From a virus (taxonomy: Duplodnaviria; Heunggongvirae; Uroviricota; Caudoviricetes), in the IMG/VR virus record IMGVR_UViG_2531839207_000033: a DNA stretch of 4,305 nucleotides. One strand, written 5' to 3'. Both the position numbers and the translations under genes were made by a program. The notes under the pieces are model-generated. The model did not search any database. It was given only the letters and a program-made list of their open reading frames with translations, and was not told the origin of the DNA. Below are positions 101-4,019 of the stretch, one piece after another (within the stretch, counting starts at the first letter, position 1; every line of letters begins with the position of its first letter).

Positions 101-373
101 TTACCTCCAGATGCGTTGCTGATATGTGCGGGACGGACGCGGCGGGCGTTCGGAATAAGGGAGCCTGACGGAAATTATCCAGCGTCGGAAGTCAGGACTG
201 AGGCCTTTCTGAAACTGGTATCCACGTCTGCGGTAATTCTGAATCAGCCACTCGGCCTGTTCTTCAGTGCATTGGTCATGCTGGTACCAGTCATATTTGA
301 ATGCGTGAGAGCGCCGTCCGTGTCTGCTGGCAGGGTCGGCATCAGAATTGTGGTGTTTGGTATTGTGCGCCAT
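101..373 (-). CDS. Small basic hypothetical protein (about 90 aa from the ATG at 373; the listed 117-aa ORF begins at a TTG at 454 that overlaps the terminator T-tract)
   Basis: Minus-strand ORF 101..454 is open throughout; the first in-frame ATG is at 373..371 (MAHNTKHH...). The composition is protein-like (W/Y/D/E/H/Q rich, e.g. KYDWYQHDQCTEEQAEWLIQNYRRRGYQFQ), whereas the overlapping plus-strand frame (open 2..487) is R/V/G/A/S-rich, typical of an antisense frame. No family recognised. Only a weak Shine-Dalgarno (GAGA) precedes the ATG. Confidence 0.4.
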   Translation of the reverse strand: MAHNTKHHNSDADPASRHGRRSHAFKYDWYQHDQCTEEQAEWLIQNYRRRGYQFQKGLSPDFRRWIISVRLPYSERPPRPSRTYQQRIWR

Positions 374-445
374 CGGTTGTCTCTGCTGGCGCAGCAGGTG
401 CCAGTTGTTCAGGCTGGCGTGTGGATTGTAAACCAGAATGCCAGG

Positions 446-471
446 AAAAAACAAAACCCGCGAAGCGGGTT
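446..471 (-). terminator. Rho-independent terminator of the restriction-modification operon
   Basis: Plus strand 455..471 is AACCCGC-GAA-GCGGGTT, a perfect 7-bp stem with a 3-nt loop. Read on the minus strand the hairpin is followed directly by TTGTTTTTT (454..446). It lies 72 nt downstream of the endonuclease stop at 544. There is no T-run after it on the plus strand, so it is orientation-specific for minus-strand transcripts. Confidence 0.6.
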
Positions 472-543
472 AGTAAAAATGTACTGAAGTCAATGACGTG
501 CCATCACAGTTAAAATATGACAGACTCTATTTACGTAGAGATG

Positions 544-1422
544 TCAGACTGCAAGATCCAAGGGAAGATCAGAAATATCCTTTAATCTTTTACCATTAAC
601 CATCACGGAAAGCATGTCAGCTGCATCGCTGAGCCCCAGTATTTCAACTGCTGATATAAGTTCATAAAGCGCAAAATGATACACGCAATCTATATCACCA
701 GTACCAAGAGCAATAGACGCCAGACGACTTGGAGTAGGCTCAGCAGTAACAACCATTACATGAGGGAGATTTCCCTTACGGTTGCGAATAAGATTTAATG
801 CCTCAGAACGAGCATTCTGGGCCCGGTCGCTTCTTATTGTCCATTTGCAGGAAATACTTGCGTGTAATATTGGTTTCCCACCATTCGAACTCCTGAGAGC
901 TGACATGCGGGTAACAGAATCATCCACCAGTAATTCAGGACTGTTGATAACTTGATCACATTCAGGTTCTCTTTCAACAATAATATCTGGTGAAATCGTA
1001 TAATCACTCCCCAGTGCAGCAGCTAGCTGAGGATTACTTTTTGCAGCACTATCCAATGCTATAAGATGGGCATATTGTTCATATTTAGCTATCTCTAATC
1101 TGTTTCTACCAGAAACCTGATGTACATTCCATTTTCCAGGGCGTAAGTGGCTGAGTTTAAAAAAGGTTTTTTCTATAAACTCTGCGCAGATACTCTCAAA
1201 CTGATTACCAGATGTTTGCCCTGCAACACGTTCACCAATCGTTTCAGCCTGCAAGAAGCGAGCAATTTCTCTTGCTATAGCTTTACTGTTTTTGTTACTG
1301 CTATCTGCGTTACTAACAACTCCGGCAGTATTAATTGTGAGCGTATTCAGTAACAATTGGGCATGAAACTCCTTTCTGGCTTCAGCAAAACCAACTATGC
1401 TGTCAACCAAATCTCCATTCAT
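544..1422 (-). CDS. Type II restriction endonuclease, NgoMIV family (PD-(D/E)XK variant, CCGG-core recognising); 292 aa from the ATG at 1422
   Basis: Contains ...HASISCKWTIRSDRAQNARSE..., i.e. the S-x-K...E catalytic arrangement and the R-x-D-R CCGG-recognition motif of the NgoMIV/Cfr10I/Bse634I family, plus an upstream SPD acidic residue. Numbered from the ATG at 1422, the residues E76, D146, K193, R197, D199, R200, E207, and also D40 and R233, all sit exactly 6 positions after the NgoMIV residues as I recall them from the literature (E70, D140, K187, R191, D193, R194, E201, D34, R227). The ATG at 1422 is preceded by AGGA at 9-nt spacing and sits 13 nt after the methyltransferase stop. The ORF is also open for 45 codons further upstream (to 1557), overlapping the methyltransferase 3' end; that extension is judged non-coding. 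Confidence 0.85.
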   Translation of the reverse strand: MNGDLVDSIVGFAEARKEFHAQLLLNTLTINTAGVVSNADSSNKNSKAIAREIARFLQAETIGERVAGQTSGNQFESICAEFIEKTFFKLSHLRPGKWNVHQVSGRNRLEIAKYEQYAHLIALDSAAKSNPQLAAALGSDYTISPDIIVEREPECDQVINSPELLVDDSVTRMSALRSSNGGKPILHASISCKWTIRSDRAQNARSEALNLIRNRKGNLPHVMVVTAEPTPSRLASIALGTGDIDCVYHFALYELISAVEILGLSDAADMLSVMVNGKRLKDISDLPLDLAV

Positions 1423-1435
1423 TTCTGGATTTCCT

Positions 1436-2560
1436 TCAGGCTGCTTGACTATTCTTACTGATGTTATTCTTATACCGTCCCTGCAAAACTCCATACACAT
1501 ATTGTGCGATTTTTGCCGCAAATAGCGGTGGAACAGCATTCCCGATCTGCTTTGCAATCTCAGTTTTTGAACCGGTAAAAATGAAATTATCAGGAAAAGA
1601 CATTAATCTCGCTGCCTCACGATGAGTTATTGGCCGATCCTCTTCCGGATGTAAATATCGCCCTTTCTCCGGTTTGAAAAACTCAGTACGAATCGTTACT
1701 GAAGGTCTGTCCCACCACAGACGTCCAAACAAATCGGTCCCTCCAGATTTCTTTTTTAGCCAGCACGCCGGGGTTATATCAGGTCTTTTTTTCTGTAAAT
1801 CGAAACGGTTACCTCCTGGTGGAACCGCTTTATATCGCTCCAGAGAAACAGGTGTGGGATTACGCCCAAAATGTAAGTTCAGCGGAGGAAGTTCATTACG
1901 AATATCAGCTCCAACAGGAGCAGGTAAGTCACCAATTGCATCACGCGTACAGACCCATTCAGGCAAAGCGACATCCTTATCAGGGGAACGATGCGTTGGT
2001 GCTGGCGGGAACGCCGGAATACTATGCACATCGAAGAGTTCTCGTTTGATACCGATTGCTATCGTTCGTTTTCTTGTCTGAGGTACTCCATAGTCAGCAG
2101 TATTCAACACCATTGGATTAAGCAGAATAAAGCCCATGGATTTCGCTCTAAACGTAATGTCCGCAAACTCATCGCTTATCAGCAATCCGGGGACATTTTC
2201 CATGACGAACATACAAGCCCTTGAACGCTCAATGACATCCATATAAGGCTCCCACAATGCTCTTCGGTGATCACCATAACGATTCTTATTCAATAAACTG
2301 AATCCCTGACACGGGGGGCCACCTATGACCACATCAGCCTCAGGAACAGTATTGCTGGATGCCCACTCCTCAATATTTGCCTGAACTCCATGCAAACCAA
2401 AATTGGCATTGTAGGTATTTATAGCTGCAGCATTATTATCAATAGCAAGGATACTTTCAAAGTAGTCAGACATCTCTCCATGAAGAAAACCATAAGATAA
2501 TCCACCTGCCCCACAAAAGAGGTCTATCACTCTGAATTTATTTAATTCTTTCATCCGCAT
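1436..2560 (-). CDS. DNA (cytosine-5)-methyltransferase, the modification subunit of the Type II system; 374 aa
   Basis: Canonical m5C methyltransferase motifs in the right order: motif I DLFCGAGGLSYGF (AdoMet binding), motif IV GGPPCQGFS (catalytic Pro-Cys), motif VI FVMENVPGLL, motif VIII GVPQTRKRTIAIG, and C-terminal motif X QIGNAVPPLFA, with a long variable target-recognition region between VIII and X. The ATG at 2560 is preceded by GAGG at about 7-nt spacing. Motif I starts near residue 13, so there is no N-terminal regulatory extension. Confidence 0.9.
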   Translation of the reverse strand: MRMKELNKFRVIDLFCGAGGLSYGFLHGEMSDYFESILAIDNNAAAINTYNANFGLHGVQANIEEWASSNTVPEADVVIGGPPCQGFSLLNKNRYGDHRRALWEPYMDVIERSRACMFVMENVPGLLISDEFADITFRAKSMGFILLNPMVLNTADYGVPQTRKRTIAIGIKRELFDVHSIPAFPPAPTHRSPDKDVALPEWVCTRDAIGDLPAPVGADIRNELPPLNLHFGRNPTPVSLERYKAVPPGGNRFDLQKKRPDITPACWLKKKSGGTDLFGRLWWDRPSVTIRTEFFKPEKGRYLHPEEDRPITHREAARLMSFPDNFIFTGSKTEIAKQIGNAVPPLFAAKIAQYVYGVLQGRYKNNISKNSQAA

Positions 2561-2643
2561 CCATATGCCTCAGATTAATGTTGAGCGTCTTACAGGACGC
2601 GTAATGTTAACTGGGGCTTTCTCTATCTGCCTTTTGGTGTTCA

Positions 2644-2668
2644 TGCCTGAGGCAGACAGCCTCAGGCA
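2644..2668. promoter_or_regulatory. Perfect 10-bp inverted repeat (TGCCTGAGGC-agaca-GCCTCAGGCA): candidate operator or 5'-UTR stem-loop of the restriction-modification transcript
   Basis: Read directly from the sequence: arms 2644..2653 and 2659..2668 are exact reverse complements with a 5-nt spacer. It lies 2-4 nt downstream of the predicted transcription start of the promoter at 2678..2706. No flanking T-tract on either strand, so it is not a canonical intrinsic terminator. Confidence 0.5.
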
Positions 2669-2677
2669 CCCGCAGCA

Positions 2678-2706
2678 ATTCTACTTAACTCACGTCACCT
2701 CGCCAA
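2678..2706 (-). promoter_or_regulatory. Putative sigma70 promoter for the methyltransferase-endonuclease operon
   Basis: On the minus strand: -35 TTGGCG (2706..2701), a 17-nt spacer, then -10 TAGAAT (2683..2678). The predicted transcription start is near 2670, about 110 nt upstream of the methyltransferase ATG. It lies in the 178-bp gap between the queH-like stop (2739) and the methyltransferase start (2560). Predicted by eye only. Confidence 0.4.
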
Positions 2707-2738
2707 TATGAAATCAATCAGAAAGGTGATCCATAAAA

Positions 2739-3425
2739 TCACTCCTTCTCTTCTTTTCCGTAGTGGAGTTGGCCAATTTTGATAAGAGGGCGTCCCTGAG
2801 ATTTGCGGTGTAGATTGGTATCGCGCAGAGAATACACACAGCCACAATATTCCTGCTGATAGAATTTTTCGCGCTTGCTGATTTCAATCATACGGGACGA
2901 GCCGCCCTGCTTGCGCCAGTTATAATCCCAGTACACCATACCCGGATAATGCGCAACAGCTCGCCGCCCACACTCGTTAACCTGCTGCATATTTTTCCAG
3001 CGTGAAATGCCCAGTGAACTGCTGATCACACTGAAACCATTTTCAGCAGCGTACAACGCTGTCCGCTCAAAACGCATGTCAAAACACATGGTACAACGGA
3101 TCCCCCTCTCAGGCTCCCATTCCATTCCTTTGGCACGTTCAAACCAGTTGTCGGTGTCGTAATCAGCATCGATAAACGGCACGCCGTGTTGTTCAGCAAA
3201 GCGAATATTTTCATCCTTACGAATTAAATACTCTTTCTGAGGATGAATGTTCGGGTTGTAGAAAAAGATGGTGTAGTCGATTCCCGAGGCCTGAAGCGCC
3301 TCCATCACTTCACCGGAACATGGAGCACAGCAAGAGTGCAGTAGTAGTTTGTTTGCCCCGTTTGGGAGCTCCAATTTAGGCCGTTTGAAATCAGCAATAG
3401 TCATAAATATTTTTATTGGGGTCAT
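2739..3425 (-). CDS. queH: QueH-family (DUF208) epoxyqueuosine reductase-like iron-sulfur protein; 228 aa from the ATG at 3425 (alternative ATG at 3404 gives 221 aa)
   Basis: N-terminal [12 protein letters not shown] motif followed by FYNPNIHP, then [10 protein letters not shown] and EYCGCVYS. I recognise this Cys-rich pattern as the hallmark of the DUF208/QueH family (the non-cobalamin epoxyqueuosine reductase). The ORF is intact. Neither candidate ATG has a strong Shine-Dalgarno sequence. The assignment is from memory of family motifs, not a search. Confidence 0.65.
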
Positions 3426-3578: not shown

Positions 3579-4004
3579 CTAGTAACGTCTAAAATACCTA
3601 ACATTTCCTTGATAAAATGCCAGTACACGCTGCATAGCTTCGCTCTTCCGGCACTCGCGACAGATTATATTCAGGCGCCTGTCGTAGCGGCGTATTTCGC
3701 CGTCTGGTAACGACCAGATAAGGTCCGGATCAACCACAACCGGTTTCTTCAGTTTTGCCCTCGATAGTTTTTTGCGGGCATTTTGCCAGTCCTTACGAGC
3801 CTGTTCAGACGGGAATAACCCGTAACCAGAGTTGTATACATCGCCACTGACAACCAGCTCTCTGGTGAGAACGCTCATCAGATATCTTGTCGCACCTGTC
3901 TTGGCTTCCAGTTGCCGCAACGTCTCGCGACCGCTCAGACGTACAAGTTCAACAACCTGCCCTTTAATTTTTTCCCGCTCTTCTTGTGTAAATGCTTTTG
4001 CCAT
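3579..4004 (-). CDS. Hypothetical protein with a probable N-terminal winged-helix DNA-binding fold; 141 aa from the ATG at 4004
   Basis: The listed ORF starts at a TTG at 4019, but the in-frame ATG at 4004 (MAKAFTQEEREKI...) is preceded by GGAGG at about 6-nt spacing. The N-terminal segment KIKGQVVELVRLSGRETLRQLEAKTGATRYLMSVLTRELVVSGDV has a helix-turn-helix-plus-wing pattern. The C-terminal part contains CRECRK. No family confidently recognised. Confidence 0.5.
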   Translation of the reverse strand: MAKAFTQEEREKIKGQVVELVRLSGRETLRQLEAKTGATRYLMSVLTRELVVSGDVYNSGYGLFPSEQARKDWQNARKKLSRAKLKKPVVVDPDLIWSLPDGEIRRYDRRLNIICRECRKSEAMQRVLAFYQGNVRYFRRY

Positions 4005-4019
4005 AAGCGCCTCCGGCAA

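Follow-up and report, generated by a model that had tools for sequence, protein, structure and literature searches.

Very probable reuse of a hok-family toxin mRNA promoter and leader to express an NgoMIV-like restriction-modification operon in Escherichia coli prophages

In a 4305-bp stretch of Caudoviricetes DNA (IMG/VR record IMGVR_UViG_2531839207_000033; hereafter, the window), an operon encoding a C-5 cytosine DNA methyltransferase and an NgoMIV-like type II restriction endonuclease is preceded by a promoter, a perfect palindrome and a further copy of the core of that palindrome, the latter lying over the ribosome-binding site of the methyltransferase gene. It is very probable that a prophage toxin mRNA of the hokD/hokW type supplied this interval, i.e., its promoter and 5' untranslated leader, which now serve to express the restriction-modification (R-M) operon. 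As such, the cis element is already known, and the novelty, a modest one, lies in the way an R-M operon has been grafted onto the mok start codon, within a shell (promoter, leader and terminator) that belonged to a type I toxin-antitoxin system.

Identity of the leader preceding the methyltransferase gene

When the whole window was scanned against Rfam, a single significant match was obtained, namely, to RF01794 ('sok antitoxin'), at positions 2671..2491 of the minus strand (61.0 bits, E = 2.8e-12; gathering score 59). Although named for the antitoxin, RF01794 follows the strand of the hok toxin mRNA, with the model extending from the 5' end as far as the hok AUG, and a match therefore marks the toxin-mRNA strand. 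The alignment was convincing from model position 1 (GGGUGCC, beginning at 2671) to the GAGGC found at 2571..2567 and spurious beyond, with genuine alignment reaching only to about model position 89, i.e., the 5' ~105 nt of the leader. In a BLAST search of 5426 complete E. coli genomes using positions 2540-2745 as query, the leader was matched in 5411 genomes, at a median of two places per genome and typically with 90-95% identity over 2567-2736. The stretch spanning 2671..2567 of the minus strand is ~94% identical to hokD-linked leaders, and such leaders adjoin hokD in thousands of E. coli genomes. By virtue of this homology, 2671..2567 (minus strand) is identified as a 5' leader belonging to a type I toxin mRNA of the hok family. 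An earlier note on this DNA had raised the possibility of an undescribed R-M control mechanism. Since the leader is a known hok/sok element (RF01794) that adjoins hokD so widely, this proposal no longer holds; being a textbook hok mRNA leader, the element opens no new class of R-M control.

The promoter called in the earlier note, TTGGCG-17-TAGAAT, was recovered in a consensus scan, where it matched 9 of 12 consensus positions, and is conserved at hok loci. The -10 hexamer TAGAAT is kept both in the hokD locus of strain Ecol_656 (L002) and in a second R-M allele, that of strain A34 (L005), despite a diverged spacer, and the -35 hexamer retains TTGGC in the same two loci (TTGGCA in L005). In most of the ~120 viral-contig hok loci, the -10 position is occupied by GTAGAA. 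By homology, the transcript would start at G2671, with GGGUGC as 5' end. The palindrome comprises the arms TGCCTGAGGC (2644-2653) and GCCTCAGGCA (2659-2668), which are 100% complementary and separated by 5 nt, and was thus correctly described as perfect over 10 bp. It is also found at the 5' end of the transcript, as had been claimed, although spanning +4 to +28 relative to G2671 and not +2 to +27.

The third copy of the 7-mer was likewise present at the reported place, overlapping the GAGG that serves the methyltransferase gene as ribosome-binding site. It reads GCCTCAG on the plus strand at 2567-2573, i.e., CUGAGGC on the coding strand, with the GAGG at 2571..2568 lying 7 nt upstream of the ATG at 2560 and 13 nt upstream of that at 2554. 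Counted over the window, the 7-mer appears six times, whereas the expectation from 200 dinucleotide-preserving shuffles was 0.45, with no shuffle (0/200) reaching six, such that the repetition indeed exceeds chance. The three copies found outside the leader (198-204, minus strand; 800-806, plus strand; and 2337-2343, plus strand) are themselves probably chance occurrences; those within the methyltransferase and endonuclease genes read, in the mRNA sense, xCT-GAG-GCx (Pro/Ser-Glu-Ala codons). The GAGGC/GCCUC repetition of the leader is, for its part, a built-in feature of the hok family.

In the model developed for hok, the 5' tac sequence pairs during transcription with the sequence immediately downstream, yielding a metastable hairpin. 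In the full-length mRNA, tac pairs with the 3' fbi sequence and the mok Shine-Dalgarno sequence is sequestered by ucb (the anti-Shine-Dalgarno sequence), and after trimming of the 3' end, tac pairs with ucb and the Shine-Dalgarno sequence with dcb, leading to an mRNA that is translatable and a target for Sok (PMC9841398). In the case of the prophage hokW-sokW pair, function as a toxin-antitoxin system has been shown (PMC8621323).

These structures were considered in an alignment of ten leaders, comprising two linked to R-M genes, six adjoining intact hok/mok (on prophages, on the K-12 chromosome and on a plasmid) and two degenerate copies. The 5' hairpin, which as RNA contains 11 bp with one extra G-U pair (-22.3 kcal/mol; z = -6.0), was paired in 99.1% of cells across the ten leaders, the changes including G-U substitutions and a single compensatory one. 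The tac-stem, formed by nt 1-8 with AAGCCCC (ucb, 2618..2613) and by nt 13-22 (2659..2650) with 2632..2623, has a predicted energy of -21.8 kcal/mol (-24.3 kcal/mol in the comparison of leader alleles) and was paired in 96.5% of cells, with two compensatory pairs. The G-U and compensatory changes seen in both the hairpin and the tac-stem argue for selection acting on RNA structure and not on a DNA palindrome. Further along the leader, ucb (GCCCCAG, 2617..2611) lies opposite CUGAGGC (2573..2567) upon alignment to the model and to hokD leaders. When forced, the closed form of this hairpin is predicted at -42.2 kcal/mol; in intact loci, it constitutes the body complementary to the Sok antisense RNA. 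The CUGAGGC box was found in eight of the ten aligned leaders. As judged from these alignments, the palindrome is the 5' metastable hairpin of the hok family and the third 7-mer is the mok Shine-Dalgarno box.

Two mechanisms had been put forward for the repeats in the earlier note. According to the first, the 3' arm of the leader hairpin (GCCUCAG) would alternate between the 5' arm and the Shine-Dalgarno copy, serving as an RNA switch that controls methyltransferase translation. The 7-nt complementarity needed between the 3' arm and the Shine-Dalgarno copy exists, and a similar GCCUC word (dcb) pairs with the mok Shine-Dalgarno sequence in intact hok mRNAs (PMC9841398). Upon folding, however, the forced pairing reached only -31.7 kcal/mol, as compared to a minimum free energy of -44.3 kcal/mol (a cost of ~12.6 kcal/mol), with an ensemble probability of 0.00, while the two conserved structures both engage the 3' arm elsewhere, with either the 5' arm or nt 40-49. 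Such a switch is therefore highly improbable. What does stand is that the element acts as RNA, with GAGGC/GCCUC words participating in mutually exclusive pairings that bear on access to the Shine-Dalgarno sequence, as in hok (PMC9841398); the specific pairing proposed does not.

According to the second mechanism, the palindrome and the third copy would be DNA half-sites of an operator bound by a repressor, be it the methyltransferase, the endonuclease or the DUF977 protein encoded in the window. The palindrome is perfect in this allele and lies just downstream of the -10 hexamer. Among 40 distinct leader alleles, however, only the main R-M-linked allele is perfect, with the others containing one or two DNA mismatches that can still pair as G-U in RNA; as a DNA palindrome, every intact hok leader allele sampled is imperfect, yet with G-U pairs 99% of positions remain paired as RNA. 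Moreover, the element is conserved at hok loci without R-M genes, the DUF977 gene is part of the phage backbone and is present with or without R-M genes, and no CCGG, the core of the site expected for the enzyme, is found in 2191-2941, the region containing the promoter and leader. An operator is accordingly very unlikely. Two related candidates were rejected as well. A role for the palindrome as a recognition site, CCTNAGG (CCTGAGG/CCTCAGG), is not compatible with an NgoMIV-like endonuclease and its CCGG-core site, no CCGG being present in the leader, while methylation-dependent control of the CfrBI type is excluded by the lack of CCGG in 2191-2941 and by the endonuclease being a close NgoMIV homologue.

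Finally, the palindrome is a GC-rich hairpin found ~70 nt after the stop codon of the upstream QueH gene, and could be thought of as the QueH terminator or else as a repeat marking the edge of an inserted cassette. Both readings are extremely unlikely. No T-run follows the hairpin, a terminator scan made no call there, and the palindrome is situated downstream of the conserved promoter. It is, moreover, 75-100 bp from the junction described below, inside hok sequence, and is also present in loci that never received the cassette, for which reasons a cassette-end repeat or attachment-site scar was rejected.

Replacement of mok and hok by the R-M cassette and distribution of the chimera

The assignment of the two genes following the leader relied on Pfam profile matches and RefSeq annotation, as for the other genes of the window. 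In the methyltransferase, PF00145 spans residues 9-353 of 374, and the translation shows the motifs FCGAGG, PPCQGFS, ENV, QTRKR and GNAVPP. The endonuclease matches NgoMIV (PDB 1FIU) over its full length (E = 9.6e-119). With an NgoMIV-family endonuclease adjoining a C-5 methyltransferase that contains the conserved motifs, the pair is an NgoMIV-type type II R-M system, for which the expected site, given the specificity of NgoMIV, would be GCCGGC. The methyltransferase stop codon is followed after a 13-nt gap by the endonuclease gene, which has its own AGGA Shine-Dalgarno sequence. Neither a controller (C) gene nor a C-box was found, with no such open reading frame (ORF) between or beside the R-M genes and all window ORFs accounted for, and the methyltransferase has no N-terminal helix-turn-helix extension since its domain begins at residue 9. 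On both of these absences, the earlier note was right.

Both ends of the R-M cassette were mapped by alignment to the corresponding prophage of strain Ecol_656, which is otherwise nearly identical and in which the context matches (Q, RusA, DUF968, a hypothetical gene, QueH, DUF977 and DUF1627) and an annotated hokD occupies the position of the two R-M genes. At the upstream breakpoint, the two loci agree almost completely up to and including ...AATCTGAGGC, with divergence beginning thereafter. Where the commonest mok allele reads GAGGC-CATATCTATGC, the window reads GAGGC-ATATGGATGC-GGATGAAAG. The mok start codon was probably retained as the ATG at 2560..2558, which offers an in-frame upstream start that would yield M-R-M-K-E-L; in the closest homologous methyltransferases, the shared start codon corresponds to the ATG at 2554, found two codons downstream in the same frame. 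At the downstream breakpoint, homology resumes at ACT(T)AACCCGCTTCG(G)CGGGTTTTGTTTTTT, i.e., at the hok terminator, where intact loci read ...CCTCAACGCACCCGCACTTAACCCGCTTCGGCGGGTTTTG. A weak Rfam match to RyhB at 448-505 (24 bits versus a cut-off of 55) was rejected as being merely this terminator hairpin.

On the basis of these alignments, all sequence between, approximately, the mok start codon and a point immediately ahead of the hok terminator is seen to have been replaced by the R-M cassette. The hok material that was kept consists of the promoter, the entire leader up to the mok Shine-Dalgarno sequence, and the terminator. In place of mok and hok, whose reading frames overlap and encode a toxin of ~50 aa, are the methyltransferase and endonuclease genes; a hok-like ORF is kept in 108 of 121 comparison loci. 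Also within the deleted segment were the sok promoter (TTGCCT-17-TAACCT), found on the opposite strand inside mok, and the target of the 5' tail of Sok, found just downstream of the mok ATG. The dcb box (AGCCUC) was lost with the swapped segment, as was fbi (CCTCAACGCACCC), which in intact loci sits just before the terminator, leaving only the terminator hairpin. No comparable sok-like promoter was found on the plus strand at 2470-2600, and a replacement antisense promoter opposite the leader was rejected given that both candidates (7/12 matches, very poor -35, ending GATAAT at 2501) were at chance level.

The R-M cassette was detected in 60 of the 5426 complete E. coli genomes, with never more than one copy per genome and with 97.6-100% identity; the fusion junction in these genomes was checked by alignment in two alleles. 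The serotypes concerned include O157:H7, O111:H11, O103:H2 and O39:NM, with some strains being listed without serotype. The most divergent allele (97.6% identical), from strain A34, has different phage flanks, and yet the leader-methyltransferase and terminator junctions are unchanged. The junction was further found in 25 IMG/VR viral contigs, all with the main leader allele. The same junctions being shared by the 60 genomes, strain A34 among them, and the 25 contigs points to a single fusion event, the product of which has since moved among lambdoid prophages.

Outside E. coli, the nearest homologues of the R-M proteins are those of Pantoea and Lonsdalea (73-74% amino-acid identity). At the 16 closest non-E. 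coli loci sampled (Pantoea, Lonsdalea and 13 more), no hok leader was found, the upstream region being unrelated. Conservation of the repeats at homologous R-M loci, a check named beforehand in the earlier note, was therefore not observed at any of the 16.

To address the wider use of such leaders, 120 leaders from viral contigs were chosen solely by the leader 3' end, using a pattern that included the CUGAGGC box. In this set, every continuation past the mok Shine-Dalgarno sequence was a mok start, except for the R-M junction. With R-M as the sole non-mok continuation, the idea of hok leaders as a general cargo platform was rejected. In plasmid p95JB1A (NZ_CP021336.1; L087, 641-815), a hok leader and mok start (84.9 bits) without a hok ORF are followed by unrelated sequence and a gene on the opposite strand; this is a truncated hok remnant and not a cargo swap.

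Proposed expression of the grafted operon

Taken as a working scheme, the R-M operon would be transcribed from the hok promoter, beginning at G2671 and ending at the hok terminator. The methyltransferase would be translated from the mok Shine-Dalgarno sequence, probably from the mok ATG at 2560, and the endonuclease from its own AGGA. A lysogen would in this manner gain promoter-to-terminator ('moron'-style) expression of a defence system. Because fbi, dcb and cis-encoded Sok are gone, delayed activation and antisense control cannot operate as in hok; the control that remains would involve competition between the 5' hairpin and the tac-stem, together with partial occlusion of the Shine-Dalgarno sequence and start codons. 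The leader most likely dampens methyltransferase translation without blocking it. Since both R-M genes are intact in 60 genomes, the methyltransferase is presumably made in protective amounts, and hence dampening, not a block, would be expected.

The main R-M-linked leader allele (listed for L124, L142, L152, L175, L199 and L211-L230) differs from hok leaders by a change of U7 to C (window position 2665) and by a 1-nt deletion (the missing A before GCCCC, at 2617), which together strengthen the 5' hairpin and weaken the tac-stem. In this allele, the two structures are close in energy (-22.3 and -24.3 kcal/mol, respectively), lying 2.0 kcal/mol apart as compared to 4.6-13.5 kcal/mol in intact hok leaders. 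In addition, a hairpin specific to the fusion is predicted at 2552-2606 (minus strand), in which leader nt 66-90 (CAUUACGCGUCCUG...) pair with the Shine-Dalgarno sequence and both ATGs (...GAGGCAUAUGGAUGCGGAUG), with pair probabilities of 0.6-0.9 in a thermodynamic prediction. The A34 allele differs at two positions of this hairpin, without compensating changes. The best promoter-like site in the window, TTGAAA-17-AATAAT (2432-2460, minus strand; 10/12 matches), falls inside the 5' part of the methyltransferase gene; transcripts from this site would not contain the methyltransferase start, and the site could be an internal promoter for the endonuclease gene or a chance match.

Several considerations weigh against reading the interval as a reused hok expression signal. 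The RF01794 score is barely above the cut-off, a result of half of the model being missing here, whereas intact hok loci score 111-120 bits. The start site and the use of the hok promoter rest on homology, and transcripts could also be supplied by read-through from upstream phage genes or by the internal site at 2460..2432. The leader of the main R-M allele departs from typical hok leaders, whereas that of the second allele (A34) is ordinary, such that no consistent adaptive trend can be claimed. Lastly, the Shine-Dalgarno sequence and both ATGs are predicted to be mostly paired, which is not easily reconciled with the need for protective amounts of the methyltransferase, and the degree of dampening is accordingly uncertain.

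The retained leader also raises the question of control by RNAs encoded elsewhere in the host. Sok RNAs from the hok/sok loci of other prophages could pair with the retained hairpin of ucb and the Shine-Dalgarno region, thereby repressing methyltransferase translation or triggering RNase III cleavage and so tying the R-M system to the resident Sok pool. The chimera-bearing strain 9000 (NZ_CP018252.2) contains an intact hokD/sok locus at 3374175-3374605 (H155), the sequence of which is that of the EDL933 copy, with seven places in all matching an intact hokD/sok query, meaning that Sok RNAs coexist with the orphan leader. Apart from two to three mismatches, positions 2567-2617 of the leader are complementary to the bodies of those Sok RNAs. 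In R1 hok/sok, however, it is the 5' tail of Sok that initiates pairing, and the region complementary to this single-stranded tail has been deleted here. Repression of the methyltransferase but not of the endonuclease would, moreover, be harmful. Both pairing of Sok in trans and its regulatory consequences are as such unlikely.

Considered more broadly, it is doubtful that the leader provides the R-M system with post-transcriptional control inherited from the toxin-antitoxin system, whether through Sok in trans or through slow refolding of the 5' hairpin into the tac-stem, with such refolding setting the rate of methyltransferase translation. Were it so, either route would represent a new class of R-M regulation, derived from one addiction module residing in the shell of another. 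The reading preferred here remains that of a hok promoter and leader reused for expression of the R-M operon.

The features of the window are listed in Table 1, with all genes being on the minus strand. QueH is prophage cargo directly upstream of the slot that holds either hok or the R-M genes, and its RefSeq accession, WP_000150294.1, is identical in prophages with either cargo (hokD or R-M).

Table 1. Coordinates of leader elements, graft junctions and genes in the 4305-bp window
Feature	Position	Strand	Remarks
Hok-type sigma-70 promoter	2678..2706	-	-35 TTGGCG 2706..2701; 17-nt spacer; -10 TAGAAT 2683..2678
Predicted transcription start, G2671 (GGGUGCC...)	2671	-	Model position 1 of RF01794; 7 nt after -10
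5' terminal 'metastable' hairpin (tac and sequence just downstream)	2643..2669	-	Includes perfect palindrome 2644-2668
Alternative tac-stem	2613..2671	-	Mutually exclusive with 5' hairpin; Rfam consensus structure; inverted repeat
Hairpin of ucb (anti-Shine-Dalgarno) with mok Shine-Dalgarno region	2567..2617	-	Rfam alignment; 94% identity to hokD leader
mok Shine-Dalgarno box CUGAGGC (third 7-mer copy), now serving the methyltransferase	2567..2573	-	GAGG 2571..2568
Left graft junction	2555..2566	-	hok homology ends between Shine-Dalgarno sequence and native methyltransferase ATG
Right graft junction (~477-480) and retained hok terminator	445..480	-	Stem AACCCGC/GCGGGTT 471..455, then T-run
C-5 cytosine DNA methyltransferase	2560/2554..1436	-	Pfam PF00145, E = 4.6e-54; RefSeq start 2554
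NgoMIV-family type II restriction endonuclease	1422..544	-	Pfam PF09015, E = 1e-126
Hairpin terminator (stem of the retained hok terminator above)	471..455	-	
QueH gene (epoxyqueuosine reductase)	3404..2739	-	
DUF977 gene	4019..3579	-	
DUF1627 fragment		-	
Small hypothetical gene		-	

Comparison with known systems

In a literature search on NgoMIV in connection with E. coli O157 prophages, no description of such an arrangement was found, no search having been aimed at hok-R-M chimeras as such. Among characterized R-M systems, those regulated by a controller (C) protein, such as PvuII, EcoRV and Esp1396I, face the same need to balance the methyltransferase and endonuclease on entering a new host; unlike these, the system considered here has no C gene and no C-box. 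Other R-M systems are autoregulated by the methyltransferase, either via an N-terminal helix-turn-helix (SsoII, EcoRII and MspI) or, in the CfrBI type, via a methylated site in the promoter. These are likewise type II systems built around a C-5 methyltransferase, whereas here there is no helix-turn-helix extension and no CCGG in the promoter or leader. Control at the RNA level is also an established idea for R-M systems, with EcoRI and Eco29kI being modulated by antisense RNA. In the present case, no antisense promoter was detectable opposite the leader, the ancestral sok having been deleted by the swap.

As for the genomic setting, lambdoid prophages reportedly contain 'morons', described by Juhala et al. 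in 2000 as self-contained inserts of promoter, gene and terminator. The R-M operon resembles these in being accessory cargo with its own promoter and terminator, located between early-region genes, and the same slot holds hokD in sister prophages. Yet, whereas morons arrive whole, the present cargo was swapped into a promoter/terminator shell that already existed. The locus thus shows that prophage accessory slots can exchange cargo and still keep their expression signals.

The closest likeness is to hok/sok itself, as represented by parB of plasmid R1, by hokC, hokD and hokW-sokW, and by RF01794. Shared with these are the promoter, the putative GGGUGC transcript start and the terminator, together with the 5' metastable hairpin, the tac-stem, the ucb anti-Shine-Dalgarno box, the mok GAGG and, probably, the mok ATG. 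By contrast, the mok and hok frames, the sok promoter, the target of the 5' tail of Sok, dcb and fbi are missing, and a 2.1-kb methyltransferase-endonuclease operon is found instead. Given these losses, the locus derives from hok/sok but is not a toxin-antitoxin system. An Rfam 'sok' match does not mean that a toxin-antitoxin system is present, and a match to RF01794 just above the cut-off may represent a leader followed by neither toxin nor antitoxin. What has occurred here is the replacement of one addiction module, a type I toxin-antitoxin system, by another, an R-M system, within one and the same shell and with a precision of a few bases at both the start codon and the terminator. The resulting chimera has reached 60 complete E. 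coli genomes; several serotypes are represented, and the lineage of O157:H7 strain 9000 is among those concerned. As such, the chimera offers a natural test of how the hok leader acts without fbi, dcb and Sok.

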